DNA from: a virus
Taxonomy: Duplodnaviria; Heunggongvirae; Uroviricota; Caudoviricetes
Virus record (IMG/VR): IMGVR_UViG_3300031911_000001
Span: 37,881 to 101,880 of that record
Length of the DNA: 64,000 nucleotides
Reading direction: 5' to 3' (one strand)
Both the position numbers and the translations under genes were made by a program. The first letter of the stretch is position 1. Every line of letters begins with the position of its first letter. The notes under the pieces are model-generated. The model made no database searches. It was given only the letters and a program-made list of their open reading frames with translations, and was not told the origin of the DNA. Below, piece by piece: positions 7,545-38,539 of this stretch.

Positions 7545-7627
7545 CTTAGAAATGGGGTGTGTTGGGTGCTGGAATACCCAAGGGATTGTAAATCCCCCGT
7601 CTCTGACATGTTGGTTCGAGTCCAACC
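7545..7627 (+). tRNA. tRNA-Tyr (GTA), type II
   Basis: Acceptor gggtgtg/cataccc+A+CCA, anticodon loop ttGTAaa, 12-nt variable arm, T-arm gttgg-ttcgagt-ccaac. Confidence 0.7.
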
Positions 7628-7680
7628 ATACCCACCAAGTATATTGCGTGTCGCTTTTCGATGTAGAAGCGACACGGAAG

Positions 7681-7756
7681 GCGCCTCTAGCTCAGTGAAT
7701 AGAGCAACGGACTTCTACCCCGTGGGTCGGGGGTTTGAATCCCTCGAGGCGCACCA
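7681..7756 (+). tRNA. tRNA-Arg (TCT)
   Basis: Acceptor gcgcctc/gaggcgc+A+CCA, D-arm tagctcagtgaatagagc, anticodon loop ctTCTac. Confidence 0.75.
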
Positions 7757-7766
7757 AGTTTAATGT

Positions 7767-7844
7767 CCGTTCGTAGCTCAGTCTGGTCAGAGTTCTCGCC
7801 CTGGAAGCGAGGGGTCCGTGGTTCGAATCCACGCGGGCGGACCA
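7767..7844 (+). tRNA. tRNA-Pro (TGG)
   Basis: Acceptor ccgttcg/cgggcgg+A+CCA, anticodon stem ctcgc/gcgag with loop ccTGGaa, T-loop ggttcgaatcc. Confidence 0.8.
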
Positions 7845-7852
7845 ATTTTTGT

Positions 7853-7934
7853 GGGTTAGTTGATATGTTGGGAAGTGATCGCCTCTCACCTATGAGAGGG
7901 GAAATCGGGAGTTCGAGTCTCCTCTGATCCACCA
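7853..7934 (+). tRNA. atypical tRNA (full cloverleaf but 8-nt or 6-nt anticodon loop cacctatg; anticodon unassignable, possibly CTA-containing)
   Basis: Acceptor gggttag/ctgatcc all paired, +A+CCA. T-arm gggag-ttcgagt-ctcct. Anticodon stem cctct/agagg encloses 8 nt. Confidence 0.4.
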
Positions 7935-8242
7935 AAAGATTCCATGAGCCTAGCCAGCATCGCCTGTGTCCATTGAAGCTCCGATGAGGGGTGGAGGACA
8001 TTCTCAACGGGCCAGGAAGCGTGAGGAAGATGGCTGCTCCCTCTTCTCCTTACACGGGAGTGACAACCGATACCATCGTGTAGTGTCTAGATGGTTAGAG
8101 TCCAAGTGGTGCACCGCTGAAGACCGACTCGGATTGCTGGGGTGTACACCACGTGACAACCTACGTTAGTGGATTGGGCCAGTCGATGGTGGCCTCGTGA
8201 TTTGAAGCTTTCGATCAGTACACGACCTCTGCTGATCACCCT

Positions 8243-8318
8243 GCTCGGGTAACTCAGTTGGTAGAGTAATCGCTTGATAAGCGATAAGTCGCTGGTTCGA
8301 ACCCAGCTCTGAGCACCA
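8243..8318 (+). tRNA. tRNA-Ile (GAT)
   Basis: Acceptor gctcggg/tctgagc+A+CCA, anticodon stem atcgc/gcgat with loop ttGATaa, T-arm gctgg-ttcgaac-ccagc. Confidence 0.8.
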
Positions 8319-8393
8319 AGATTTTGACTGACTGGGTACAAGGCCCAGCTAGGATTCGGTATCCTAGAGCCTCAAGAGGAAGCTACAGTCTTT

Positions 8394-8470
8394 GCCCCGG
8401 TGGTGGAATCGGTAGACACACCCGCCTCAGAAGCGGTTCGCTGAGAGTTCGAGTCTCTCCTAGGGCACCA
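8394..8470 (+). tRNA. tRNA with Leu anticodon CAG but short (5-nt) variable arm (class-I-like tRNA-Leu)
   Basis: Acceptor gccccgg/ctagggc, discriminator A, CCA. Leu-like D-arm ggtggtggaatcggtagacac. Anticodon loop ctCAGaa. Variable tcgct. T-arm gagag-ttcgagt-ctctc. 77 nt. Confidence 0.55.
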
Positions 8471-8520
8471 AGTTTTGATGAAGATCGTGGTTCAAAGCCA
8501 CGGCAATGACCATATCGAAA

Positions 8521-8708
8521 GTGCTGGTAGCTAGCTCAACTGGTAAGAGCGTCGTCGAATTAATGAGCCGATCCTCACCGGCAATAGCGATGGAGTAATG
8601 TCCGGCTGCAGAATGAGGAAGATTGAAGCAGGCGAGTGGAACGGATACATAACCATCTTGGTCTCATAAGCCAAGGATACCGGGTTCGACTCCCGGGCAC
8701 TGCAACCA
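8521..8708 (+). other. composite tRNA-like element: tRNA-like D-arm 5' part and canonical T-arm/CCA 3' part separated by about 110 nt; no consistent acceptor pairing
   Basis: 5' tagctcaactggtaagagc; 3' ccggg-ttcgact-cccgg...acca. Acceptor strands not complementary. Possibly a degenerate or interrupted tRNA. Confidence 0.3.
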
Positions 8709-8783
8709 AACAAGCCCCGGCGGCTTATCGTCCGGCGGGGCGGTCCCAGATTGGGTAGGTCTGGGTTATCAAAAGACCCCTGT

Positions 8784-8860
8784 GCCCTTGTAGTTTAACT
8801 GGTTTAGAACAGTGGACTTTCACTCCACCGATTCGGGTTCGATCCCCGATGAGGGCACCA
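8784..8860 (+). tRNA. tRNA-Glu (TTC)
   Basis: Acceptor gcccttg/tgagggc+A+CCA, anticodon stem gtgga/tccac with loop ctTTCac, T-arm tcggg-ttcgatc-cccga. Confidence 0.8.
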
Positions 8861-8928
8861 AGTTTTTAGAGGTTTTCCGGAAATGGGTAGCTCCCACTCC
8901 GGGATTGGGCTAGTACGCGACTGGCCTT

Positions 8929-9018
8929 GGACGAAGTGATGGAAATGGTAGACATAGGCCCTTTACCGGGCCGGAGGATGCAAAGCACCTCGTGTGGGTT
9001 CGAGCCCCACCTTCAATG
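8929..9018 (+). other. tRNA-like (type II-like) element with T-arm gtggg-ttcgagc-cccac but no encoded CCA and a 6-nt candidate anticodon loop
   Basis: ggccc-tttacc-gggcc hairpin and a long variable-like segment. Acceptor pairing not found. Confidence 0.25.
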
Positions 9019-9182
9019 TCCAGCAAGATTCTTGCAAGAAGAAAGCGCATAGACCCTGCAAATCGCCGCACACCGGCAGGGGTATTGACTATGCGGGGTA
9101 TGAGCCCCAAGAGTGCGGCTACAATTCCAAGGGCGGAACGTCATCAGACCGTCTAAAAAATTCGATGACCTTTGATAATTAT

Positions 9183-9258
9183 TCCCCGGAAGCAAACTAG
9201 GTGTGGGCAACGGACTGTTAATCCGCGAAGCGAGGTTCGAATCCTCGGCGGGGAGCCA
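9183..9258 (+). tRNA. tRNA-Asn (GTT), degenerate D-arm
   Basis: Acceptor tccccgg/gcgggga+G+CCA, anticodon arm cgga-ctGTTaa-tccg (as in E. coli tRNA-Asn), T-arm cgagg-ttcgaat-cctcg. D-stem not complementary. Confidence 0.6.
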
Positions 9259-9273
9259 TTATCAAAGAATTGT

Positions 9274-9349
9274 GTGTCGGTGGCTGAATGGTTTAGGCGG
9301 TGGATTGCAAATCCATCTCATGTAGGTTCGAGTCCTATCCGGCATTCCA
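9274..9349 (+). tRNA. tRNA-Cys (GCA)
   Basis: Acceptor gtgtcgg/ccggcat+T+CCA, anticodon stem gtgga/tccat with loop ttGCAaa, T-arm gtagg-ttcgagt-cctat. Confidence 0.7.
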
Positions 9350-9478
9350 AGTTTCTGTCAGTTGTCAAAAGGTGCCCTTGATCAGGGTGGCTGAGTAGGC
9401 AGCAAGGGTAGATTGATCATCTACTGATATACCGGATACGTCATCTGGGTAGTGGCGAATTATTTCAACGATTTATGT

Positions 9479-9555
9479 GCGTGTGTAGTTCCAATTGGTA
9501 GAACGCTATCCTTCCAAGTTAGATGTTGCAGGTTCGAATCCTGTCGCCCGCACCA
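9479..9555 (+). tRNA. tRNA-Gly (TCC)
   Basis: Acceptor gcgtgtg/cgcccgc+A+CCA, D-arm gttc-caattggta-gaac, anticodon loop ctTCCaa, T-arm gcagg-ttcgaat-cctgt. Confidence 0.75.
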
Positions 9556-9659
9556 GTTTTTATCAGCAGTCATCTGTCCGTGCTCTGGATGAGACGTCGA
9601 ATTCCTCTTGGTTCTCAACGAGAGGTTAGTAGTGCCAGAGCACGGGGTCAAATGATTGT

Positions 9660-9736
9660 TGGGGAGTCGCCTAGTTGGCCTAAGGCACGTGACTTTGACT
9701 CATGCATCGCTGGTTCGAATCCAGCCTCCTCTGCCA
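9660..9736 (+). tRNA. tRNA-Gln (TTG)
   Basis: Acceptor tggggag/ctcctct (U1 mismatch as in E. coli tRNA-Gln)+G+CCA, anticodon stem cgtga/tcatg with loop ctTTGac, T-arm gctgg-ttcgaat-ccagc. Confidence 0.75.
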
Positions 9737-9833
9737 GTTTATGTCAAGGTAGTTCAAACAGCAAGAACACCGGCTCGTCAATACCAGCCGGAAATGTGGT
9801 CGACTGGCAGCACACCCTTGACACCAGATATAT

Positions 9834-9914
9834 CCCGCGGTAGCTCAGTCGGTAGAGCGGTCCATGATGTACAGCATGGATGCGTCGGTGGTTCAATTCC
9901 ATCCCAAGGGGCCA
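9834..9914 (+). tRNA. atypical tRNA (canonical D- and T-arms; anticodon stem ccatg/catgg enclosing 8-nt loop atgtacag; GTA/TAC-containing)
   Basis: D-arm tagctcagtcggtagagc, T-arm ggtgg-ttcaatt-ccatc, acceptor 3' ccaaggg+G+CCA with 5/7 pairing. Confidence 0.45.
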
Positions 9915-10074
9915 GATTAAGTGTGTTTGTTCAATGTGTCCCAAAACCTTATCAGAGCGAAATTGCCGTCCCCTGCAAAGGGCGCGCTGACTGTACCTAC
10001 CTTCTTAGGTTCTTTAGGAGCCCTATCGCTGGCCCAGATAGGCAAACATAGAAGGACATTGAACAAACACTCGT

Positions 10075-10545
10075 ATCAGTGACTTGATCACTGTGAAAAG
10101 CGAAGTGGATAGATGGAACACGGGGGTTCAACTCCCCCCACCTCCACCAAAAGAGCCCTCTGCCCGAGCGGTTAGGTCGAAAGACTATAGCGTCGGATCG
10201 GCAGAGACAATAACCCGGCAAAGGCTGCTAAGCGGGTTCTTTTGATGGGGGTGACCCGGCTATCGACTCCGTCATTGAAACAGAGCTTACGAGTAGAGGA
10301 AAGCATATCACAGCCTCTTAAAAATCGGTATGCAAAAGAGTAAGTGCAAACGACGCTCAAATGCGTATTGCGGCCTAAAAACCTGCAACGCTGAGGGGTA
10401 AAGCCCTTATCACCAAAACCAATCCTTGAGCCCGGCAATTGCAGGGTGACTTTGAGAACCATCAGAAATGATGGGGGTCAGGGACTGGGCCGTATAAAGT
10501 AGCGGTCCACCAATTTAAGTAGAGCACAGGCAAAACACTGCTCTA
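10075..10545 (+). ncRNA. ssrA: tmRNA (ssrA), apparently circularly permuted two-piece form: acceptor piece about 10075-10148 (T-arm gggg-ttcaact-cccc, 3' cacctcc-A-CCA) precedes coding piece 10246 to about 10545 (5' GGGGGUGACCCGGCUAUCGACUCCG, tag ORF 10346-10378)
   Basis: 3' acceptor cacctcc (10138-10144) pairs perfectly with downstream gggggtg (10246-10252). Coding piece carries GCAAACGACGCUCAAAUGCGUAUUGCGGCCUAA, giving the tag peptide ANDAQMRIAA-stop followed by CCUGC as in E. coli ssrA. Terminal hairpin agtagagca...tgctctact at about 10510-10540. No T-arm or matching acceptor downstream of the tag, arguing against a one-piece gene. Confidence 0.7.
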
Positions 10546-10571
10546 CTAAGTAACCATGAAGGAACAAAATC

Positions 10572-11015
10572 ATGGTTACCATAGAAGAATACATCGAGAA
10601 ACCAATCGCTGAACGTCAGTCCCATCTGAGGTTGGATGAACCCTGTATGGAGCGTAGCTCGTCTGGTAAGAGCACCTCGACGTTCTGCAAGGGTTTGCTG
10701 GCTCACATTTTTGATACGACTATCCCAAAGGGTATGTCAATTCATGTTTGCCATGCTTGCAACAATGAAATCTGTTCAAATCCGGATCATCTCTATTGGG
10801 GTACGGCAAAAGAAAACAGGCTGGATCAGGTCAAAGACCGCAGCATTTGGGAACGTAATGTTCATAAAAACGGACTCGAGACTGCGATAGAAGTTCAACG
10901 TGCTGCATCAAGTAAAGGCGGTAGAGCCAATGCAGGCAAACCGAAGTCTCCTGAGCATCGGGCCAAACTGGCTCTAGCAATGATGGGGAAACGGAACAGA
11001 TCAAAGGGTATCTAG
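10572..11015 (+). CDS. HNH homing endonuclease
   Basis: 147 aa with HVCHACNNEICSNPDHLYWGTAKEN (HNH motif). AAGGA RBS. 3' end overlaps tRNA-Trp by 10 nt. Nucleotides about 10634-10660 inside the ORF resemble a tRNA D-arm (gtagctcgtctggtaagagcacc). Confidence 0.7.
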   Translation: MVTIEEYIEKPIAERQSHLRLDEPCMERSSSGKSTSTFCKGLLAHIFDTTIPKGMSIHVCHACNNEICSNPDHLYWGTAKENRLDQVKDRSIWERNVHKNGLETAIEVQRAASSKGGRANAGKPKSPEHRAKLALAMMGKRNRSKGI

Positions 11016-11081
11016 CTCAACTGGCAGAGCAGGCGCCTCCAAAGCGTCAGGTTGTAGGTTCAACTCCTACGGTGCCCGCCA
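11006..11081 (+). tRNA. tRNA-Trp (CCA)
   Basis: Acceptor gggtatc/ggtgccc+G+CCA, D-arm gctc-aactggca-gagc, anticodon stem ggcgc/gcgtc with loop ctCCAaa, T-arm gtagg-ttcaact-cctac. Confidence 0.8.
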
Positions 11082-11239
11082 AAATACAGGTCAGAGCCAA
11101 TATCAACCAGATACATGCTCTGACCAATAAAGTGAATAAACTCACTTTTAAGCCGGTTAATCACCAGTTTATTAACTGAATTCGTTGATGTTTGAGGCTT
11201 TACAATAGTGACGTCAAACAAACATAAACGGAGTTCATT

Positions 11240-11776
11240 ATGACAGACAAGGTAAGCGGAATCCTCCACGTGCGGCCGATCAACATCACAGAAGGCGCGT
11301 ACTCGAACTATGGCGGCATTTCGCTGGCCTACTCGGTGAAGGAAAGTGGTGATGTGAAGGTAAGTCTCGCGATCTGCTCGCACCAAGATCGGTTCAACCG
11401 TAAGCGCGGACGTCAGATCGCTCTGGGACGCCTGAACAGCGAACGTGCTCAAGAGCTCGTGTCGACGTTCGATTCTTCGGCCCTCGAATTCATGGCAGCT
11501 GAATACTTCGGCGTCAAGATGAAGATCGAACCGAAGGTGGGTAGCACCGGTGAGTTCTACGTGGAACGTGAGAAGTTCCCACTGAGCGCAGTGCTCCTGT
11601 TGATGGTGCGCCCGATGGTCCTGGACCTGCTCCATCGTGAAGCAGCTGACCACGCTGTTCAGTTCCTGGAAGAATACACGATCGAGGACGTTGCGATCGT
11701 CAGCTACCGGAATGGTCTGGGTTGGCACTTCGGTGCTAAGACCAATGAAGTCGGAATCGGCGTCCGCGTGGTCTAA
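11240..11776 (+). CDS. hypothetical protein (178 aa) within tRNA island
   Basis: ORF with RBS aaacggag. The antisense 361-aa ORF is judged spurious. Confidence 0.6.
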   Translation: MTDKVSGILHVRPINITEGAYSNYGGISLAYSVKESGDVKVSLAICSHQDRFNRKRGRQIALGRLNSERAQELVSTFDSSALEFMAAEYFGVKMKIEPKVGSTGEFYVEREKFPLSAVLLLMVRPMVLDLLHREAADHAVQFLEEYTIEDVAIVSYRNGLGWHFGAKTNEVGIGVRVV

Positions 11777-11876
11777 AGGTTTTGCCAGTTTATCAAAACT
11801 GGCTGGTGGAAGTTGAATCGAGTAAAACCGGTTCAGCCCTAGTTTTCTCCCAAGGTTTTCACAAAACGTTGGATCT

Positions 11877-11954
11877 GCCCCTGTAGCTCTTAACTGGTAG
11901 AGCGACTGCCTTGTAAGCAGAGGGTTGGCGGTTCGAGTCCGTCCGGGGGCACCA
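11877..11954 (+). tRNA. tRNA-Thr (TGT)
   Basis: Acceptor gcccctg/cgggggc+A+CCA, D-arm tagctcttaactggtagagc, anticodon loop ctTGTaa, T-arm ggcgg-ttcgagt-ccgtc. Confidence 0.8.
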
Positions 11955-11977
11955 GATTTTTGATAAAGGAAAAGAAG

Positions 11978-12118
11978 ATGGTTGCAAAGCGTTTTGAGGT
12001 TCGTCACAACAATGACATCTATCACGTGTTTGACACACGTCTCTACATCGTGATTGATGCATACCGTGACAAGCAATCGGCTGACGAGCATGTCGATCAG
12101 CTGAACGGCAAGAAGTAA
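11978..12118 (+). CDS. small hypothetical protein (46 aa)
   Basis: MVAKRFEVRHNNDIYHVFDTRLYIVIDAYRDKQSADEHVDQLNGKK. RBS aaaggaaaag. Confidence 0.45.
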   Translation: MVAKRFEVRHNNDIYHVFDTRLYIVIDAYRDKQSADEHVDQLNGKK

Positions 12119-12249
12119 GAAGGCGGAGGCTTCAATGCCTCCCATTAGGCCAGGATGTTTGTAAGGCGTTATTGTGGGTGCCTCCCACTAGCTGTCGGTG
12201 GAAAGGGACACGGCAACCCGGTTCCCCTGATTAAGCATCCTGGCCTAAT

Positions 12250-12342
12250 GGGCATCTTAGCCGAGCTGGCCTAGCGGCAACGGTCTTGAAAACCGAAGGC
12301 TCCGAAAGGGGTGTGTGAGTTCGAGTCTCACGGTGCCCGCCA
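12250..12342 (+). tRNA. tRNA-Ser (TGA), type II
   Basis: Acceptor gggcatc/ggtgccc+G+CCA, anticodon stem cggt/accg with loop ctTGAaa, long variable arm, T-arm gtgag-ttcgagt-ctcac. 93 nt. Confidence 0.8.
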
Positions 12343-12529
12343 AATTTGTGTGAGATTGAAATGTGAAGGAAAACGGTTAAGTCTGCAGGCGCTTGCCGTT
12401 AGTAGGTCACAAAGTAGTTGCTCAGGCTACCTGCACTTTTGATGTTGTCGCGAGTACGCCAACGGGTCAATGCAAACAGTACCGAACTCAAAAGATGCCG
12501 CCGGCGTCGGAACCGGCCACAAACCACAT

Positions 12530-12609
12530 CTCTCGTTAACTCAGTGGAATAAAAGAGTACTGCGCTACGAACGCAGGAGTCGGAGGTTCGAATCCTTCAC
12601 GAGGGACCA
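12530..12609 (+). tRNA. tRNA-Arg (ACG)
   Basis: Acceptor ctctcgt/acgaggg+A+CCA, anticodon stem ctgcg/cgcag with loop ctACGaa, T-arm ggagg-ttcgaat-ccttc. Confidence 0.75.
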
Positions 12610-12675
12610 TTATTTCTGCCTTGGGTTCGAATCCCACGGCGCGAGGGCTGAAGTGGACAGCAGGCAGAAATAATG

Positions 12676-12751
12676 GCCTAGATAGCTCAGACGGTAGAGC
12701 GGCAGCTTGAAAAGCTGTGCGTCACTGGTTCGATCCCAGTTCCGGGCACCA
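12676..12751 (+). tRNA. tRNA-Phe (GAA)
   Basis: Acceptor gcctaga/tccgggc+A+CCA, D-arm tagctcagacggtagagc, anticodon loop ttGAAaa, T-arm actgg-ttcgatc-ccagt. Confidence 0.8.
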
Positions 12752-12939
12752 AGATTGTTCATTGACGACTGGGTAATGTCGTGGATGTTCATGTGAAAGT
12801 CGTGTCCAGGAGGCTCTTGAGAAGATGGCACCGCCCTCCAGCAATGGAGTCCACCGGGAGTGGATGTAAAGAGATTAGAGTCGTGCGGTTGGTGGTTCGC
12901 CATCAACTGTCAAGGATCGGTGGTGACATCGGTCCACCC

Positions 12940-13015
12940 GGGCTCGTAGCTCAGCCGGGAGAGCAACTGCTTTGCAAGCAGAAGGTTGCAGGTTCGATTC
13001 CTGTCGGGTCCACCA
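12940..13015 (+). tRNA. tRNA-Ala (TGC)
   Basis: Acceptor gggctcg/cgggtcc+A+CCA, D-arm tagctcagccgggagagc, anticodon loop ttTGCaa, T-arm gcagg-ttcgattc-ctgt. Confidence 0.75.
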
Positions 13016-13537
13016 GTTTTGTTGATCGTCATGGGCAAGTCGTGACACGTGGGGAACGTAGACCATACACCGATGATCAACGCATTTTATTCGCCGAAGC
13101 TGTAGGTTCAGAGCCGTGATGCAGTACTCCACTCTAATGAGGGAGCGTTTGTGAGGTCAATACTCACCGGCAAATGGTTTGGAGAGTAGTTAGGATGTCG
13201 GGGTGAAATCCCATCATTTAAAGAGTCGTATGGCATTACCCTGATCCCCCACTGCAAGGATCGGAATGTTGTGCCCGGGGAAAGAACAAGCACAGTTCAT
13301 GTGGTTATCGACTATTCGTGCTCTAGAGCTCAGGGCATGAGGTTGAACGTTCAAGGGCGAAGCCTTGGACTAAATCGGCGGGTGTAATGACGGAAAGACC
13401 CAAAGAGATGCCACGTTGAGACCCGTAGATCGTTTGGCTGTCGAAAGCACACTACCTACTCCCAATTCAACATTAGACCCGCCCACGTTATGGGTAGAAG
13501 ATCGGTCGTTTATTAGGGCCTACATGGATCGTCCTCC

Positions 13538-13609
13538 GGACCGCATGCACCGGAGTAAGGCCTCTTTCGAGAGGCCGATGGGTGGGTTCGATTCCCATCA
13601 GGTCCACCA
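13538..13609 (+). other. tRNA-like element with canonical T-arm and CCA end (gtggg-ttcgatt-cccat, caggtcc-A-CCA) but 6-nt anticodon-like loop and degenerate D-arm
   Basis: ggcctc-tttcga-gaggcc hairpin. Acceptor pairing 5/7. Confidence 0.3.
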
Positions 13610-13617
13610 GTTTCAAT

Positions 13618-13693
13618 GCGTGCTTAGCTCAGTTGGTAGAGCAGTTGAGTGCCACTCAACAGGTCGCAGGTTCGAACCCTGTAGCCCGCACCA
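13618..13693 (+). tRNA. tRNA-Gly (GCC)
   Basis: Acceptor gcgtgct/agcccgc+A+CCA, D-arm tagctcagttggtagagc, anticodon stem gttga/tcaac with loop gtGCCac, T-arm gcagg-ttcgaac-cctgt. Confidence 0.8.
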
Positions 13694-13743
13694 GTTTCAA
13701 TGATTGATGACTCAATGCAGTGTATAATGACTGCTTTTGGGAC

Positions 13744-13998
13744 ATGAACATGAAACCTATTCGCCTCATCTTCAACATCTACCGGACGCTTCGGAAGAAG
13801 CCAATCGTCCAGTCGGTTGAAATCTACATGAAGTCCGGCAACGTGATTGTCATCGACAATGTGATCGGAGATATCACTTACACGTATCAGGGCAACCAGA
13901 TCACCTATCTGAAGGTCAAGCAGGCCCCGGGACACAATGTAGCGATTGAATCCATCGACTTGAGCCAGATCGAGGGCTTCAAGAGCAAAGCATACTAG
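13744..13998 (+). CDS. small hypothetical protein (84 aa)
   Basis: ORF track 13720..13998 begins at GTG. ATG at 13744 follows a TATAAT box at 13723-13728. Confidence 0.45.
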   Translation: MNMKPIRLIFNIYRTLRKKPIVQSVEIYMKSGNVIVIDNVIGDITYTYQGNQITYLKVKQAPGHNVAIESIDLSQIEGFKSKAY

Positions 13999-14008
13999 AA
14001 AGAGCATT

Positions 14009-14344
14009 ATGATCGACGACAACTTCCGCAAAGCATTCCTGACCGGCACCGATGACACCGGGCGTCACATCGTGACTTCGGCTCGCACAGGTCGTACCTA
14101 CTTCGTAGAGGCGATCATCACCGAGAAGACCCCTTCGTGGGGTTCGGTGGACCCGGCAACCGGGAACCTGATGCACAAGAAGGGCGACGGGAAACATCTG
14201 GGTGGCGTGAAGCCGGCTCAGTCCATGATCACTCTCGAGAACGGTTTCGATAAGGTCCATGAACTGGGCCACGGAACGTCACCGTATGCGAAGATCGAAG
14301 AACTCGACGCTCAGTACCCCGACAAGGAAGCTGTAGCGGCGTAA
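14009..14344 (+). CDS. hypothetical protein (111 aa)
   Basis: ORF in tRNA island with plausible RBS. Confidence 0.5.
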   Translation: MIDDNFRKAFLTGTDDTGRHIVTSARTGRTYFVEAIITEKTPSWGSVDPATGNLMHKKGDGKHLGGVKPAQSMITLENGFDKVHELGHGTSPYAKIEELDAQYPDKEAVAA

Positions 14345-14439
14345 GGAATTGAAGTATCGTCGGGGTTGTTCCGGCTTCCGCTTCGATGGGCAGTTTTCAT
14401 CCGGTTCTGCGCCTTGTAAAAACCGGCTCCTATTCTGTG

Positions 14440-14516
14440 TGGACCGTCGCCAAGCTGGTTAAGGCCGGGGATTGTGATTCCCCTATGCGTGGGTTCGAAT
14501 CCCATCGGTCCAACCA
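14440..14516 (+). tRNA. tRNA-His (GTG)
   Basis: Acceptor tggaccg/cggtcca (perfect)+A+CCA, preceded by G(-1). Anticodon stem gggga/tcccc with loop ttGTGat. T-arm gtggg-ttcgaat-cccat (close to E. coli tRNA-His). Confidence 0.8.
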
Positions 14517-14526
14517 CACAATTTCG

Positions 14527-14604
14527 GGGTCGCTAGCTCAATCGGTTTAGAGCACCGGGCTTTTAACCCGGGGGTTCTGAGTTCGAGTCTCAGGCGGCCC
14601 ACCA
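14527..14604 (+). tRNA. tRNA-Lys (TTT)
   Basis: Acceptor gggtcgc/gcggccc+A+CCA, anticodon stem ccggg/cccgg with loop ctTTTaa, T-arm ctgag-ttcgagt-ctcag. Confidence 0.8.
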
Positions 14605-14612
14605 AGGTTTTC

Positions 14613-14690
14613 GGATTGCTAACTCAACTGGTTTAGAGTACCCGCCTCTTAAGCGGGAGGTTCTGTGTTCGACTCACAGGCAATCCACCA
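14613..14690 (+). tRNA. tRNA-Lys (CTT)
   Basis: Acceptor ggattgc/gcaatcc (perfect)+A+CCA, anticodon stem cccgc/gcggg with loop ctCTTaa, T-arm gtgtg-ttcgact-cacag. Confidence 0.8.
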
Positions 14691-14702
14691 CTACAGGAGA
14701 AG

Positions 14703-14861
14703 ATGATGAGCAGAACAGTCAAAGGCGGTAAGGGACCGGGATTTGAATACTGGGGCAAGCGTCCCTTCTCGGGTGTCAGTCCCAGCAAAGAGAACAAGCA
14801 GATCACCCACAAGATCGAACGCCAGCGCAACAAGAAGCTGGACAAAGCCGAGAAAGACTAA
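14703..14861 (+). CDS. small basic protein (52 aa)
   Basis: MMSRTVKGGKGPGFEYWGKRPFSGVSPSKENKQITHKIERQRNKKLDKAEKD. Strong RBS caggagaag. Confidence 0.5.
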   Translation: MMSRTVKGGKGPGFEYWGKRPFSGVSPSKENKQITHKIERQRNKKLDKAEKD

Positions 14862-14959
14862 GTAGATACGTTACGCAGGTATTGCTCGACTGAGGGTGAA
14901 AACCCCTCCCGGGACTGCGCCCGCTATAACCGGAGATGAGTACCGGTTTACAACATTTT

Positions 14960-15035
14960 GGGACGTTAGCTCAGCTGGTAGAGCAGCGGATTGTCTATCC
15001 GCATGTCAGGGGTTCGAATCCCCTACGTCCCGCCA
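14960..15035 (+). tRNA. tRNA-Asp (GTC)
   Basis: Acceptor gggacgt/acgtccc (perfect)+G+CCA, anticodon stem gcgga/tccgc with loop ttGTCta, T-arm cagggg-ttcgaat-cccct. Confidence 0.85.
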
Positions 15036-15089
15036 GTTTTTATTGACCACATGGGGCTAGAGTTTTGAAAGCCGAAGTGTCGTCAATAC

Positions 15090-15164
15090 AGCCGATTAGC
15101 TCAGAGGCAGAGCGGCTCCCTTACAAGGAGAAGGTCGACGTTTCAAAATCGTCATTGGCTACCA
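15090..15164 (+). tRNA. tRNA-Val (TAC), unusual T-loop
   Basis: Acceptor agccgat/attggct+A+CCA, D-arm tagctcagaggcagagc, anticodon loop ctTACaa, T-arm gacg-tttcaaaat-cgtc (non-canonical). Confidence 0.65.
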
Positions 15165-15170
15165 TACAGA

Positions 15171-15237
15171 GGTGCTGTAGCTCAGTTGGTTAGAGCGCAG
15201 GATTCATAACCCTGAGGCCGGTGGATCATTCCCACCT
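15171..15237 (+). tRNA. tRNA-Met/Ile2 (CAT), elongator-type, unusual T-loop
   Basis: Acceptor ggtgctg/tagcacc+A+CCA, D-arm tagctcagttggttagagc, anticodon loop ttCATaa, T-arm ggtgg-atcattc-ccacc. Confidence 0.65.
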
Positions 15238-15251
15238 AGCACCACCAGAAC

Positions 15252-15277
15252 AAGACCCTTCGGGGTCTTTTCTTTTG
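15252..15277 (+). terminator. rho-independent terminator closing the tRNA array
   Basis: aagaccc-ttcg-gggtctt followed by ttcttttg. Confidence 0.7.
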
Positions 15278-15297
15278 CCCTTTCTTTCATCGAAGTG

Positions 15298-15356
15298 TTG
15301 ACGGTCGTCATGAACCTCCCTACAATAGGACATCAACAACCACTTGGAGAAGTGAA
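15298..15356 (+). promoter_or_regulatory. conserved early promoter + leader, copy 1 (TTGACG-N17-TACAAT, leader CATCAACAACCACTTGGAGAAGTGAAATG)
   Basis: Seen in sequence. Shares the core CCACTTGGAGAAGTGAAATG with 8 other sites. Confidence 0.7.
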
Positions 15357-15563
15357 ATGCGCAAATTCAAAATGACTATCCTCTGTTCTGTCCAGGTCGA
15401 GGTTCTTGCAGAACTGACCGAAGACGGCACCTTCGTCAGACATGTGGTTGGCGTCAAACATCCGACTGCCGAAGAGGTCATGGCGGCACTAGAAACCCAT
15501 CCCGGTGTCGGTGGCTTAGAAGAGCTCGACTCCCACTACGCCAACGCAAAGGATTTCCAATGA
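15357..15563 (+). CDS. small early protein (68 aa)
   Basis: ATG directly follows the conserved leader. Confidence 0.65.
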   Translation: MRKFKMTILCSVQVEVLAELTEDGTFVRHVVGVKHPTAEEVMAALETHPGVGGLEELDSHYANAKDFQ

Positions 15564-15760
15564 AAACCATGTACTTGGTCCTTGACGGCCTGACCCCGGA
15601 AGACTTCATCCTTCAGCACGTCATACAGACATACGAATTGGATGAGGATCAGGCCAAGGCCATCATCCAAGGACTGAAGGACAACGGGAGTTACCAAGAC
15701 CTTTACAATAGGGCGGTCGAGGTAATCGACGGATTTAAAAAGATGATGGAGGTAAAGTGA
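15560..15760 (+). CDS. small early protein (66 aa)
   Basis: ATGA overlap with previous gene. Confidence 0.6.
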   Translation: MKTMYLVLDGLTPEDFILQHVIQTYELDEDQAKAIIQGLKDNGSYQDLYNRAVEVIDGFKKMMEVK

Positions 15761-15969
15761 TGAGCAAGACCAAACTTCGCCGAGGAATCGGCCACATGGG
15801 CCGTGTCTTCCAATACGGCACCGCAGTCGGCCCGAATGGTGCATCTCTTAGCATCCGGGCTTCTGTAAAGATGCAGGAGGATAACGCCCGAAAGCTGAAC
15901 AAGCTGCCAGAGTTCAAACGTGCTGCAAAGAAGCGCCAACGTCGTGATGACTTCCGGATGGCATCATGA
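15757..15969 (+). CDS. small basic early protein (70 aa)
   Basis: GTGATG overlap with previous gene. Lys/Arg-rich C-terminus. Confidence 0.6.
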   Translation: MMSKTKLRRGIGHMGRVFQYGTAVGPNGASLSIRASVKMQEDNARKLNKLPEFKRAAKKRQRRDDFRMAS

Positions 15970-16442
15970 ACTCCTGTGAAGAACTAGTCCGTGGCATGGA
16001 AGCCGTGGCTGGACCGGGTAATGTGCCCATCTCGTATCGCATCATGGCCCAGTACGGCCGTGAGTACAAGATCAAGACCAACCACCTGACCGGCAAAGGC
16101 CGCAAGCAGGAATGCTACCGGAACTCCGAGAACCTCGTGACGTTCCAGAGCCTCGATGACCGATACGTCTACGTCGAAGGCTACGCCATGAAGCCGGGGT
16201 TGATTCCCTTGTCCCATGCGTGGGTCGTAGACCTGAACGATGGCAAGGCAATCGATCCTACGTGGCCTGAGGGCGATGGCATCTACTTCGGGGTGCCATT
16301 CGACAACGAGTTCGTCAACGACTTCTCGATCAGTGTCGGCTGCTACGGAATCTTCGAGAACCTCTACAAGTTGCACCGTGCTCGCAACATCAAGCGGCTC
16401 GAAGACGTCATCAAATACCTCGAGTCAGGTATCGTCAAGTAA
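15966..16442 (+). CDS. hypothetical protein (158 aa)
   Basis: ATGA overlap with previous gene. Confidence 0.65.
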   Translation: MNSCEELVRGMEAVAGPGNVPISYRIMAQYGREYKIKTNHLTGKGRKQECYRNSENLVTFQSLDDRYVYVEGYAMKPGLIPLSHAWVVDLNDGKAIDPTWPEGDGIYFGVPFDNEFVNDFSISVGCYGIFENLYKLHRARNIKRLEDVIKYLESGIVK

Positions 16443-16489
16443 GTAAACCACGGGTCATTGAAGGCCCGTCATTTACCATACAGGTTCAA

Positions 16490-16579
16490 GGGCGGTTGGC
16501 AGAGAGGCCGATTGCAGGGGGTTGCTAACCCCTAGGCTCCGCAAGGGGTCCACAGGTTCAAATCCTGTACCGCCCGCCA
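16490..16579 (+). tRNA. tRNA-Ser (GCT), type II
   Basis: Acceptor gggcggt/accgccc (perfect)+G+CCA, anticodon stem ggggg/cccct with loop ttGCTaa, long variable arm, T-arm cacagg-ttcaaat-cctgt. 90 nt. Lies outside the main array. Confidence 0.8.
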
Positions 16580-16595
16580 ACTCTACGGAACCTGT

Positions 16596-17018
16596 ATGTC
16601 AGCACTCTACAATCACATCCGAGCCGAATGGGTCGCTGCCCGACAAGGCAGAATCGAGCTCAAGGCGACTGCTCTCGGCACCATCATTTCTGATCTGGAC
16701 CGCATTGCCAAGGACGAGCAACGTGAGGTCCGAGACTCAGACGTCTTCAATCTGGCACTGAAGTACATCAAGGGCATCAACGAGACCTTGGATGCTCTGC
16801 TGAAGAACGCACCGTCGGACGTGCGCATCCCCCGAATTCAGTTCGAGAAGACGATCTACCAAGAGCTCCTGCCGTCTCAATTGACGCCAGACGAGATCAA
16901 GAAGATCATCCAGCAAAACCACCTGACCGGTGTCAAGGACATCATGACGTACTTCAAGCACCACTACGTTGGCCGGTACGATGGAAAGGTACTCTCAGAA
17001 ATCGCCAGGACAGCATGA
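16596..17018 (+). CDS. hypothetical protein (140 aa)
   Basis: ORF. Confidence 0.6.
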   Translation: MSALYNHIRAEWVAARQGRIELKATALGTIISDLDRIAKDEQREVRDSDVFNLALKYIKGINETLDALLKNAPSDVRIPRIQFEKTIYQELLPSQLTPDEIKKIIQQNHLTGVKDIMTYFKHHYVGRYDGKVLSEIARTA

Positions 17019-17326
17019 AATCAGCCATTATCTACACGCAGGCCGGAGACCGTACCTACCGGTTCATCTGGTACGAAGACCTGCTTAAACGGGCGCAAAT
17101 CGGCTTCCGTGTAGTAGAGCTCCCACGTCTCGAGAACCAGTGTCAGGGGTGCATCCTGAAGTGGGACTTCTCGGTCAGAGGCAACCACATGGATGACTAC
17201 GGTAATCGCATGGGTTGCACCGCTGACCAGTACCGAGACTTGACATACGTCATTGGATGGGATCACAGCTGCGGAACAACTGAAATCAGATCAGAGAAGC
17301 AACTCAAAGAATGGATCGAATCATGA
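17015..17326 (+). CDS. hypothetical protein (103 aa)
   Basis: ATGA overlap with previous gene. Confidence 0.6.
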   Translation: MKSAIIYTQAGDRTYRFIWYEDLLKRAQIGFRVVELPRLENQCQGCILKWDFSVRGNHMDDYGNRMGCTADQYRDLTYVIGWDHSCGTTEIRSEKQLKEWIES

Positions 17327-17793
17327 AGCAAATCTACGTCGCAGGCTTCGCCTTCAATGGTGATCGTGTCCTGCTCATCGAGAAGACGAAGCCTGAATGG
17401 CAGGCAGGGAAGCTCAACGGTATTGGTGGCAAGGTCGAGAAGTACGACCACGACGAATACGCCGCCCAATGCCGTGAGTTCTGGGAAGAGACTGGCATCA
17501 GCACCAATGCCCTCAATTGGACCAAGTTCGACGTCGAACGATTCGATCATGCCGAAGTCCATTGGTTCTTCAACCCGGTTGTCAACATTGACTCATTCAT
17601 CAAGACTACCGAGGAGCAACCGGTGATTGTTCGAGTCAGTGACGTCATCGGTGAAGGATTCAATCCATACGACGATGGCAAGATGTGTCTCTATAACTTG
17701 CCCTATCTGCTACTAAAAGCATGGACTTTCGTCTTCAATGGTGGTCCTCACCATCAGATTCCCAATCTTAAGGCCTCATACTACACTGCGTAG
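17311..17793 (+). CDS. Nudix hydrolase (T4 NudE-like)
   Basis: Nudix box GGKVEKYDHDEYAAQCREFWEETGI. Confidence 0.75.
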   Translation: MDRIMKQIYVAGFAFNGDRVLLIEKTKPEWQAGKLNGIGGKVEKYDHDEYAAQCREFWEETGISTNALNWTKFDVERFDHAEVHWFFNPVVNIDSFIKTTEEQPVIVRVSDVIGEGFNPYDDGKMCLYNLPYLLLKAWTFVFNGGPHHQIPNLKASYYTA

Positions 17794-17829
17794 CAATTGT
17801 AAAGTGTAAGTAAGCAGGGAGATACCAAT

Positions 17830-18465
17830 ATGAAACTAATCAACAAACTGGTGTTCGCTGCTATTATGCTTGTCACTTGCACTGCCGTGACTACACAGCA
17901 ACTGCAGCAGACCGAGAAGATCATTGAGACGGAGCAGTCTACGATTGCTGTCGTTCGTGACAAGATTGACAAGTCCATCACCGGTGACAAGCTGGTGTTC
18001 GGCAGTGTGGTTCACCTGAAGAAGCAGGTCGGCGTAGACAACATCCGGATCATCCAGCGCAAGGGTGCGTACAACTGTGCCCGGGGTGAGTTCATCATCA
18101 AGGAAGTTACCGCCTTTGACAAGTCCGGTAACGAGGTCAAGGATGAAAACATCAAGACCGATGTGATCATGACGCCGAACATCGACACCGTCAAGCGAGA
18201 GTTCAAGTTCATGTGTGCCGATCCTACACCGGCTCCTGTAGTAGAACCACCTGCACCGCCGCCTCAGATCATCACGGTTCCGATCCCTGTGATCATTGAA
18301 GCCGTCGAGGAAGCACCGAAGAAGGCCCGTCCGAAGCCAGCAGTGAAGAAGCCTGAACCGGCACCGAAGCCAATCGCCAAAGCCCCTGAGGCACCCAAGG
18401 TCAAGGCTCCTGTTGTTCAAAAACAACCACTCAACGCCGGACAACGTACTGATCTGGTAGACTAA
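17830..18465 (+). CDS. secreted/membrane protein with Pro/Ala/Lys-rich repetitive C-terminus
   Basis: N-terminal hydrophobic segment. C-terminal PTPAPVVEPPAPPP...KKPEPAPKPIAKAPEAPKVKAP low-complexity repeats. Confidence 0.6.
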   Translation: MKLINKLVFAAIMLVTCTAVTTQQLQQTEKIIETEQSTIAVVRDKIDKSITGDKLVFGSVVHLKKQVGVDNIRIIQRKGAYNCARGEFIIKEVTAFDKSGNEVKDENIKTDVIMTPNIDTVKREFKFMCADPTPAPVVEPPAPPPQIITVPIPVIIEAVEEAPKKARPKPAVKKPEPAPKPIAKAPEAPKVKAPVVQKQPLNAGQRTDLVD

Positions 18466-18472
18466 TGCACAT

Positions 18473-18553
18473 GGGGGAGTGACGGGAATCCTTGGTATAC
18501 CTCGGGGCCTCAAAAGCTCTGGTCTGTGGGTTCAAGTCCCACCTCCCCTACCA
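18473..18553 (+). tRNA. tRNA with Leu anticodon CAA, Leu-like D-arm, discriminator A, but short (5-nt) variable arm (second class-I-like tRNA-Leu)
   Basis: Acceptor gggggag/ctcccct+A+CCA, anticodon stem ggggc/gctct with loop ctCAAaa, variable ggtct, T-arm gtggg-ttcaagt-cccac. Confidence 0.5.
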
Positions 18554-37468: not shown

Positions 37469-38539
37469 ATGGTTGATTTCGCAGCACTACGTCAACGCAA
37501 GGGTACAAACTTCGATGCCCTGCAAAAGTCACTGGAAAAATCGAGCTCCGGTGGTGGCTTCAAGAAAGATGAACGCATCTGGAAGCCAAAGGAAAACAAG
37601 GACGGCAAGTCGTCCAGCATCATTCGATTCCTCCCCATCCCCGCAGTTGACTTCGATCTGGTCGCACAGGGCAAGTTCCCCGAGACTGACCTGACGCCCC
37701 TGATCAAGGTGGTCCGTCACCAGTTCCAAGGCCCGAACGGCTGGTACGTTGAGAACTCACTGCAGACCTTCGGTGAAGCCTGCCCGGTCCGTGAACACGA
37801 TGGCCCGATCTGGGGTGACGCCAAGAAGCGCAACGACAAGCCTCTGCAGGAAGTGCTCAAGAAGCGTCTCCCGAAGCAGGACGAGTACGTCGGCATCTAC
37901 GTCATCAAGGACGGCACCAGCCCCGAGAACAACGGTGGCGTGTTCCTGTACCAAGTACCGGCAACGATCAAGAAGATGATCGACCTTGCGAACAAGCCAG
38001 AGTTCGAGAACCAAGTCGCATTCGACCCGTTCGATATCTGGGAAGGCAAGGACCTGATCCTGAACATCACCTACGAAACGAAGGCGATCAACGGCAAGGA
38101 CGCTCGCGTACCGAACTGGACCAACGTGGCGTGGGCACCGGCTCCGAGCGCTTTCCTGAACGGCAACGAAAAGGAAATCGAAGCCGTGTGGCGCAAGCAA
38201 TACTCGCTGCTTGAGTTCCATGATCGCAGCCCGGAAGCCAAGAAGTTCAAGACCTACGACGAGCTCAAGGAAAAGTTCTGCAAGGTGATGAACCTTGACG
38301 AGAACTACAATCCCCTGAAGGGTTCTGCGGCTCGTGCTGGTACTACAGCTGGTGACTTCGTCGGTGGGCAAGAGTCTGCTCCTGCAGCAAGCGCACCTGC
38401 GGCCCCTGCACCGGCCCCGAGCGCACCTCCTGCGGCTACCCCTAGTGCTGCACCTTCAGCAGCCCCTGCGGCCGCTCCTGTAGCTTCGGCGGATGACTCA
38501 ATGGCTGAGTTTGAACGTCTGTTGAACGGCGGCAACTAA
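37469..38539 (+). CDS. single-stranded DNA-binding protein (T4 gp32 homolog) with Ala/Pro-rich C-terminus
   Basis: SIIRFLPIP, CPV...H zinc site and IYVIKDGTSPENNGGVFLYQ align to T4 gp32 ([29 protein letters not shown]). Confidence 0.8.
   Translation: MVDFAALRQRKGTNFDALQKSLEKSSSGGGFKKDERIWKPKENKDGKSSSIIRFLPIPAVDFDLVAQGKFPETDLTPLIKVVRHQFQGPNGWYVENSLQTFGEACPVREHDGPIWGDAKKRNDKPLQEVLKKRLPKQDEYVGIYVIKDGTSPENNGGVFLYQVPATIKKMIDLANKPEFENQVAFDPFDIWEGKDLILNITYETKAINGKDARVPNWTNVAWAPAPSAFLNGNEKEIEAVWRKQYSLLEFHDRSPEAKKFKTYDELKEKFCKVMNLDENYNPLKGSAARAGTTAGDFVGGQESAPAASAPAAPAPAPSAPPAATPSAAPSAAPAAAPVASADDSMAEFERLLNGGN

Follow-up and report, generated by a model that had tools for sequence, protein, structure and literature searches.

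A predicted circularly permuted, two-piece tmRNA gene in the tRNA array of a large phage

Genes for transfer-messenger RNA (tmRNA; gene ssrA) were first listed among phages for mycobacteriophages and Bacillus phage G (PMC4131195), and a 2025 tmRNA database holds 79 phage sequences (PMC11915505). Across 18,146 phage genomes, tmRNA was found in 402, with 133 unique forms, 53 of which are two-piece by ARAGORN (PMC9004378). Carriers of the two-piece form include Methylophilales phage Melnitz, Pelagibacter phage Mosig, Caulobacter phages CcrSC and CcrBL9, Synechococcus phages and Sphingobium phage Lacusarx, and Table S1 of the same paper marks Caulobacter, Synechococcus, Sphingobium and other phages 'Permuted' (PMC9004378). 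In bacteria, the processing of two-piece tmRNAs is established (Keiler, Shapiro and Williams 2000; Sharkady and Williams 2004, as cited in PMC9004378 and PMC11915505). The experimental model is Caulobacter crescentus, in which a permuted gene gives rise, by excision, to two base-paired RNAs (Keiler, Shapiro and Williams 2000, as cited in the same two papers). Here we describe a locus of this kind in a 64,000-nucleotide stretch of IMG/VR virus record IMGVR_UViG_3300031911_000001 (positions 37,881 to 101,880), which we call the window and in whose coordinates, on the + strand, all features below are given. A preliminary description of the locus, made from the letters alone, had called a virus carrying such a gene unusual, which the 53 two-piece forms among 133 show to be overstated.

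Judged by its sequence, the locus is a circularly permuted (two-piece) ssrA gene of a phage, set in an array of transfer RNA (tRNA) genes. We hold this identity with high confidence and the details of its processing with moderate confidence. ARAGORN called a permuted gene ('tmRNA*') at 10057–10469 with the tag ANDAQMRIAA. When the whole 64-kb window was searched against 4227 Rfam families, the merged permuted-tmRNA model RF04321 passed its gathering score of 47 bits with 61.9 bits (E = 1.5e-9, well outside what chance would give), with an alignment over 10090–10378 that runs end to end through model positions 1–213. The standard one-piece model, RF00023 (threshold 47 bits), had no match at the gathering threshold in the window. 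The order of the parts is permuted, with the encoded CCA ending at 10149, G1 at 10247 and the tag frame at 10346–10378, and the two halves form a seven-base-pair acceptor stem with G3·U70, a discriminator A and CCA. A second helix, P2, joins both pieces and carries compensatory changes. The tag frame begins with an alanine codon and ends in a stop codon, and two relatives have tags ending QVA and LRA. The preliminary description had proposed a permuted tmRNA in a phage tRNA array, to be checked with ARAGORN and tmRNA covariance models. Both have now been run and agree, giving a permuted call, RF04321 above threshold and no one-piece fold at threshold, and the gene is conserved with compensatory changes in four relatives. 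We file it with the known two-piece family because it has the defining features of the general family. Phage-borne two-piece tmRNAs have been published already; this gene is a divergent further example, and its novelty is modest.

We reached relatives through homologues of the window's topoisomerase (59–64% identical), which led to syntenic contigs, and every syntenic contig that reaches the slot holds a permuted tmRNA there. These are L126, with its twin L127 (167,744 bp; tag ANDAQMRIAA, the same as in the window; RF04321 69.1 bits), L131 (32,372 bp; ANDSQIRVAA; 66.8 bits), which ARAGORN missed, L133 (15,213 bp; ANESSYRQVA; 68.2 bits) and L140 (5,111 bp; ANDSQMALRA; 62.3 bits). Gene order around the tmRNA is the same in L126, L131 and L133. 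In L140 (2250–2700), the first half of the tRNA array has been lost and the tmRNA kept directly after the topoisomerase gene. The L140 locus also shows a remnant tRNA 3′ half, GGGTTCGATTCCCGCTGTTGAGCCCA, upstream of the tmRNA, and a terminator-like hairpin with a U-run about 100 nt past the tag stop. Related-phage contigs reached by ligase homology, and a short NCBI contig, end before the tmRNA slot.

The acceptor piece, which holds the 3′ half of the tRNA-like domain, has a minimum conserved extent of 10069–10149, as placed by the RF04321 alignment and by 97% identity to L126 once an inserted hairpin is set aside. The block conserved among the relatives begins at AAAC-ACUCGU, and the 5′ end of the piece probably falls at 10060–10069. 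The ACUCGU strand, P2c (10069–10074), pairs with ACGAGU at 10289–10294; both strands are invariant in four sequences, and a cofold of L133 predicts the helix. Between P2c and P2b lies the inserted hairpin, CAGUGA-CUUGA-UCACUG (10077–10093), in the acceptor-piece strand of P2, where it makes a three-way junction. Counterparts occupy the same place in L133 (CAAUGAC/GUCAUUG, a compensatory variant), L126 (CCGGUG/CACCGG) and L140 (CCC-GAAA-GGG); the sequence differs in each relative and folds each time, and the hairpin is not in the Rfam beta or merged models. The P2b strand AAGC (10098–10101) pairs with GCUU at 10285–10288 and covaries, and the P2a strand GAUGGA (10112–10117) pairs with UCCGUC at 10268–10273, as predicted by RNAalifold. 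The T-arm follows at 10122–10138 (GGGGG 10122–10126, TTCAACT 10127–10133, CCCCC 10134–10138), its stem invariant in all five sequences. The piece closes with the acceptor 3′ strand CACCUCC (10139–10145), which pairs with 10247–10253, the discriminator A (10146) and the encoded CCA (10147–10149). The preliminary description had recognised the T-arm, acceptor strand and CCA and placed their end one nucleotide short, at 10148. Its gap of about 100 nt before the tmRNA 5′ end measures 97 nt, and this intervening sequence (10150–10246), between the acceptor piece and the coding piece, is presumably absent from the mature RNA.

The coding piece is conserved from 10247 to about 10425, as judged by identity to L126. 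It opens with the acceptor 5′ strand GGGGGUG (10247–10253), in which G3 stands opposite U, and a cut by RNase P is predicted directly before 10247. The GGGGGTG had been noted earlier with its start at 10246, again one nucleotide off; its seven-nucleotide pairing with the acceptor 3′ strand is real, although it is not Watson-Crick throughout, since position 3 is a G·U wobble, the alanine identity element of tmRNA. A candidate pseudoknot, PK1 (10295–10333), can be read from the sequence, with stems P3 (AGAGG 10295–10299/CCUCU 10314–10318) and P4 (GCAUA 10303–10307/UAUGC 10329–10333). The tag frame (10346–10378) comprises the resume codon GCA, then AAC GAC GCU CAA AUG CGU AUU GCG GCC and the stop codon UAA at 10376–10378, encoding ANDAQMRIAA. 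It is preceded by UAAGU (U-5, A-4), and UAAGU-GCA fits the RF04321 consensus UAAaU-GCa. The same tag (10346–10375 plus TAA) and the CCTGC after it (10382–10386) had been read correctly from the letters. Past the stop, a hairpin AGGGG-UAAAG-CCCUU (10394–10408), followed by the A/C-rich AUCACCAAAACCAA, is common to the window, L126 and L140. A candidate helix 5, CCUGCAA (10382–10388) with UUGCAGG (10439–10445), appears in the minimum-energy fold over 10382–10445 and is uncertain. The stretch from 10426 to 10571, with three predicted hairpins including one at 10519–10546, is non-conserved; it directly adjoins, on the upstream side, an open reading frame (ORF) for an HNH endonuclease, and it is probably not part of the tmRNA. 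The hairpin at 10519–10546 had been described as terminator-like, which is not supported: it has no U-tract, was not called by a terminator scan and lies in the sequence that is only 46% identical to L126. The right-hand limit of 10545 likewise lay too far out, as conservation stops at about 10425.

To compare structures, the genes from the window, L126, L131, L133 and L140 (n = 5) were split at landmarks and their helices aligned manually. Standard pairs fill 189 of the 190 helix cells in this alignment. Pairing falls to 43–52% when the 3′ partners are slid by 1–3 columns, and none of 2000 column shuffles reached the observed pairing, a test that ignores relatedness and draws on only five sequences. 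Four sequences have the acceptor stem GGGGGUG/CACCUCC, where L131 has GGGGCGG/CCGCUCC, a difference of two compensatory pairs, and the G3·U70 alanine determinant is kept in all five. In P2a, GAUGGA/UCCGUC changes in a compensatory manner to GCUGGA/UCCGGC in L140 and UUUGCA/UGCGAG in L131. The P2b variants AAGC/GCUU, AGCC/GGUU, AGGC/GCCU and AGAC/GUCU come from the four unambiguously aligned sequences and do not depend on L131. P2c is ACUCGU/ACGAGU in four sequences, with GGCGG/CCGCC at the matching place in L131, an assignment made post hoc. Both five-base-pair stems of PK1 can form in all five sequences; P3 is invariant and P4, which RNAalifold also found, varies only by G·U pairs. Two-piece minimum-energy cofolds show the proposed P2 cleanly in L133 only, and the structure is proposed because of the comparison between sequences, not because of folding energy. 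Two versions of the 3′ domain exist: AGGGG-UAAAG-CCCUU and the A/C-rich stretch are common to the window, L126 and L140, and L131 and L133 share other helices. Because the L131/L133 domain differs from that of the window, we read the 3′ half of the coding piece as swapped or remodelled within the clade. The helices of L131 (14568–14652) and L133 (13771–13860) covary with each other, as CAGCU/AGCUG against CAGUC/GACUG and GCCCGCC/GGCGGGC against GCCCCUC/GAGGGGC.

Segment by segment, the contrast with L126, whose topoisomerase is just 60% identical to that of the window, outlines the functional RNA. Beside the acceptor piece, the 5′ part of the coding piece is 90% identical, the tag with its stop 100% and the first 47 nt past the stop 96%; the intervening sequence is 56% identical and the sequence beyond 10425 has the low value given above. 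For comparison, tRNAs common to the window and L126 are 64–100% identical. Because identity is high in these segments and low in the intervening and distal sequence, we take the functional RNA to be about 10069–10149 plus 10247 to about 10425. Lengths of the intervening sequence are 97 nt in the window, 95 nt in L126 and 27–31 nt in L131, L133 and L140. Each of the five versions folds into one hairpin that stacks on the acceptor stem (z from -4 to -6.5; for the window, -51 kcal/mol and z = -4.8), and a conserved leader UUGAU (AUGAU in L131) pairs with ACCAA. The 97-nt sequence is not repeated elsewhere in the window and has no Rfam match.

Like the published two-piece tmRNAs of Melnitz and other phages, this is a permuted ssrA gene of a large lytic phage, detected by ARAGORN and with a complete tag frame, and the presumed role, keeping the hijacked translation machinery running, would be common to both. 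Unlike those of the Melnitz type, the window gene shares only 30-nt T-arm/acceptor similarity with 50,697 phage genomes and has no glutamine riboswitch or other Rfam element attached. Its phage also belongs to another lineage, distantly related to Ralstonia phage RSP15 (helicase 53% identical), Pseudomonas phage Cygsa01 and Delftia phage PhiW-14, the nearest cultured relatives, whose hosts are betaproteobacteria (Ralstonia, Delftia) and a gammaproteobacterium (Pseudomonas). Published phage tmRNAs cluster with their hosts' lineages (alpha, cyano or gamma/beta), whereas this gene fits no clade model. It shares with the betaproteobacterial RF01850 the same acceptor stem, a 10-residue AND tag (consensus approximately ANDE-FA-AA) and AAAAC-GC past the stop, but differs in its extra P2 hairpin, its 3′ domain and an intervening sequence of 97 nt, where the model has about 18. 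With the C. crescentus tmRNA and RF01849 it has in common the overall order of the parts; however, alpha tags have 12–14 residues and begin ANDN, and the alpha model scores below the beta model here. The one-piece tmRNAs of the Bxz1 group of mycobacteriophages and Bacillus phage G, and the DS6A RNA, which has the tRNA domain only (PMC4131195), are likewise phage-borne in tRNA-rich genomes, but those are in standard order or have no tag frame, in contrast to the permuted gene with a full frame described here. What marks the window gene out is its strong divergence, the P2-inserted hairpin, a hairpin-forming intervening sequence that is long in two of the five genes, tight packing among tRNAs and variable tag ends.

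Taken together, it is very likely that the locus is a working permuted ssrA gene that performs conventional trans-translation in an uncultured phage of about 168 kb with T4-like replication genes. On this reading, the gene would be transcribed with the surrounding tRNA genes as a single precursor, in which the acceptor 3′ strand and CCA (to 10149) would already pair with the 5′ strand (from 10247) and the 97-nt intervening hairpin would cap the paired stem. Host tRNA-processing enzymes would excise this hairpin, with RNase P cutting before G10247 and 3′ trimming halting at the encoded CCA. The products would be an acceptor piece, starting at about 10060/10069 and ending at 10149, and a coding piece that begins at 10247 and reaches at least 10425. 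Seven base pairs of acceptor stem and about 16 of P2 (P2a, P2b and P2c) would hold them together, with the hairpin inserted in the acceptor-piece strand. G3·U70 would allow charging by the host alanyl-tRNA synthetase, and with host SmpB and EF-Tu the RNA could enter ribosomes stalled on broken mRNAs. Translation would resume at GCA 10346, append ANDAQMRIAA and stop at UAA 10376, freeing the ribosome. Together with 26 tRNAs for 20 amino acids, such a gene may keep translation in the infected cell independent of the host's RNA supply.

Several observations weigh against this reading of a working, conventional gene. Though RF01850 is the top clade-specific model for the window, it reaches only 36.2 bits against a threshold of 84, and neither RF01849 (alpha) nor RF01851 (cyano) gave a match at its gathering threshold; both lie below the beta score and were dropped as clan overlaps. 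No equivalents of PK2–PK4 were found in the comparison, which identified only PK1 and one conserved post-tag hairpin, and the invariance of P3 leaves that PK1 stem without covariation support. Just 4 bp of the helix-5 candidate are possible in L126, and L140 has no clear equivalent. Much of the covariation comes from the single divergent L131, whose P2b and P2c partners were chosen post hoc. The outer limits given here, at the 5′ side of the acceptor piece and the 3′ side of the coding piece, are provisional and reflect how far conservation reaches. The tag ends QVA and LRA are unusual for a proteolysis tag. Lastly, tblastn did not find smpB in the 64-kb window, a weak test as the E. coli SmpB query was approximate. 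In L133 the beta score is 46.6 bits, from a local match confined to the tRNA domain.

The variable tag ends bear on an alternative in which the tmRNA is functional but serves a phage-specific purpose, rescuing ribosomes or competing with the host tmRNA for SmpB while providing a poor protease tag, and so sparing phage proteins made from damaged mRNAs or while a host defence cleaves mRNA. In all five sequences the frame has 10 codons plus UAA and begins GCA AAC GA, yet the distinct tags of the clade end in IAA, VAA, QVA and LRA. Tag C-termini thus vary among close relatives, and an AA end occurs in two of the four distinct clade tags against 58 of 60 distinct tags among the listed IMG/VR permuted matches (Fisher p = 0.017, from a small, post hoc comparison). 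The tag and 5′ end are encoded by no species-representative bacterial genome, and there is a precedent on record in the DS6A phage tmRNA fragment that inhibits host tmRNA (PMC4131195, PMC11915505). However, the window tag ends in IAA, near the canonical LAA, the conserved AND/ANE start resembles that of normal proteobacterial tags, and the sample is five sequences. We regard a phage-specific purpose as unlikely, though it is the strongest of the alternatives. The same variation may mean that ribosome release matters more to these phages than degradation tagging, a rival to or refinement of the conventional reading that we hold at low probability.

How the two halves are made separates the excision of an intervening sequence from a further alternative, in which they are separate genes, with a terminator in the intervening sequence (AACCCG...CGGGUU-CUUUU, 10215–10243) and a promoter of its own for the coding piece. 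A hairpin followed by UUUU does stand directly before G10247 in the window, and the intervening sequences of the window (97 nt) and L126 (95 nt) are long. Against this, a scan of 9700–10700 for sigma-70 promoters and terminators found no promoter-like site and no + strand terminator-like site, its sole match being a minus-strand terminator-like site at 9788–9769. In the best fold the same U-run pairs with AAAA past the CCA, RNase P requires a 5′ leader, and the 27–31 nt found in three relatives is too short for a terminator plus a promoter. The conserved block of L133 starts about 6–9 nt past the CCA of tRNA-Gln and the last helix of L131 stops 6 nt before tRNA-Trp. Because of this tight spacing and the short intervening sequences, there is no room for separate promoters or terminators, and we consider separate genes quite improbable. 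The formation of two mature RNAs by excision of the intervening sequence is supported only indirectly, by the contrast between that sequence (56% identical to L126) and the mature parts (90–100%). The simplest reading is one polycistronic precursor with the tRNAs, in which tRNA-processing enzymes would make all four ends, in keeping with the bacterial two-piece tmRNAs described in the later papers cited above.

Fragments of the 3′ end of ssrA are common in temperate phages, where they serve as attachment sites. In the window, the T-arm/acceptor string of 28 nt matches such att-type ssrA sites, and the locus might accordingly be thought a non-functional relic, a decaying piece of host ssrA from, for example, an old integration site. 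Both halves and the tag frame are complete, however, and the gene occupies the same place in five phages with proteins only about 60% identical, with compensatory changes. It was retained in L140 despite the loss of the first half of the tRNA array, and a matching sequence was found in no bacterial genome searched. The relic reading is thereby largely refuted, and its chance is very slim. An ordinary one-piece tmRNA, misread as permuted, has only the shared tRNA-like elements in its favour and is ruled out, to near certainty, by the gene order: the 5′ end and tag come after the T-arm and CCA, and downstream of the tag there is neither a T-arm nor an acceptor strand (as the preliminary description had also seen). 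In addition, RF00023 has no match at threshold and ARAGORN flags the gene as permuted.

Searches beyond the syntenic contigs set the permuted gene apart from deposited sequences. The DNA of 9900–10700 had no match in 50,697 deposited phage genomes, and the joined mature sequence, searched in phage genomes at E up to 1, matched only in 30-nt T-arm/acceptor stretches that belong to att sites or other ssrA genes. Neither species-representative bacterial genomes nor JGI metagenome contigs contained a match to a degenerate tag pattern, a resume-region pattern had none in IMG/VR viral contigs or metagenome contigs, and a 5′-end pattern gave five matches in bacterial genome contigs (about four estimated by chance), none of them a tmRNA. 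In IMG/VR, the exact 28-nt T-arm/acceptor string occurs at three loci, none of them permuted, and two of these are the 3′ ends of one-piece tmRNAs by Rfam. The looser pattern CACCTCCACCA-N85-115-GGGGGTGA occurs there at at least 119 loci (L006–L124), 82 of which ARAGORN called permuted, and among the matches listed none is more than 52% identical to the window gene. We sampled 12 of these permuted tmRNAs. Nine pass the beta model (100–178 bits) and two the alpha model (77–78 bits), all 12 score 98–155 bits on RF04321, and their contigs carry no tRNA arrays. Because they are of typical beta or alpha type with no tRNA arrays nearby, they are probably host ssrA genes beside prophages and not phage genes, and counts of 'phage tmRNA' from collections such as IMG/VR may be inflated.

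The virus is a phage, as had been recognised. The window is identical to part of a 167,881-bp ENA metagenome contig (ERZ27248661 k141_721879) and encodes both subunits of a T4-type topoisomerase II, an ATP-dependent DNA ligase, a ribonucleotide reductase and a UvsW-type helicase, along with tail tube, tail and tape-measure-like proteins. By ARAGORN and Rfam, its tRNA array (7555–18553) comprises 26 tRNA genes for all 20 amino acids, and the tmRNA is flanked in it by tRNA-Gln (9660–9736) and tRNA-Trp (11006–11081). The tRNA order is largely kept in relatives with only about 60% identical proteins. Between tRNA-Gln and the tmRNA lies a degenerate tRNA-like sequence (9834–9914) that has two acceptor-stem mismatches, ends in GCCA and carries either an oversized anticodon loop or a 3-nt 'intron'; ARAGORN reports it only at a lowered threshold, and Rfam makes no call at the gathering score. 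The same slot holds ordinary tRNAs in L126 (tRNA-Asn(att), 13848–13924) and L131 (tRNA-Ala, 14157–14233). At 8930–9018, ARAGORN reports a 'tRNA-???' whose anticodon has two bases (ta) in a loop of 6 nt and whose variable arm is long, and similarly odd calls occur in L126 (13640–13714, 'tt') and L133 (12424–12513, 'aa'). A further oddity is found in L128, another relative of this phage, where an Rfam tRNA match of 36.6 bits extends the full model over 168 nt (12279–12446), as if about 95 nt, possibly an intron, had been inserted into a tRNA gene. The HNH endonuclease ORF (10572–11015; phrog_1872/1492) separates the tmRNA from tRNA-Trp, runs into the first 10 nt of the latter and is found at that spot in the window only, being absent there in L126, L131 and L133. 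GIY-YIG (SegE-like) ORFs occur elsewhere in the arrays of relatives, for example in L131 (12822–13457), and the tRNA arrays of this phage group seem to be recurrent targets of homing endonucleases. Another ORF near the tmRNA, 11240–11776, had no homologue but itself.

The preliminary description had also taken the gene as a hint of the host lineage. That step is weak, given the low beta score, and in phage Melnitz the lineage of the tmRNA and the host can disagree (PMC9004378). The 10-residue AND- tag, the incomplete match to the beta model and the bacteria that the nearest cultured phages infect are, together, loose pointers to Beta- or Gammaproteobacteria. A bolder proposal is that the gene represents a fourth, phage-restricted two-piece lineage, arising from an independent permutation or a very old capture with no living bacterial counterpart, matured wholly through the processing of the neighbouring tRNAs and with a tag drifting away from a protease signal. 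We think this improbable. Were it true, the drift of the tag would signify phage rescue of ribosomes without degradation, or a counter to host defences that cleave mRNA or tRNA.

Knowledge of the tmRNA mechanism itself is unchanged by this gene. What it adds is a well-supported and structurally annotated two-piece tmRNA from phages of a group not represented in cultured-phage or IMG/VR collections. It shows that phage tmRNAs can diverge beyond the reach of the three clade-specific Rfam models, with ARAGORN missing one of the five (L131), and because clade models and ARAGORN miss divergent genes, surveys probably undercount phage tmRNAs. The tight packing among tRNA genes suggests that the tmRNA ends are made by tRNA processing, and the variable tag ends hint that these phages may need the release of ribosomes more than they need proteolysis.

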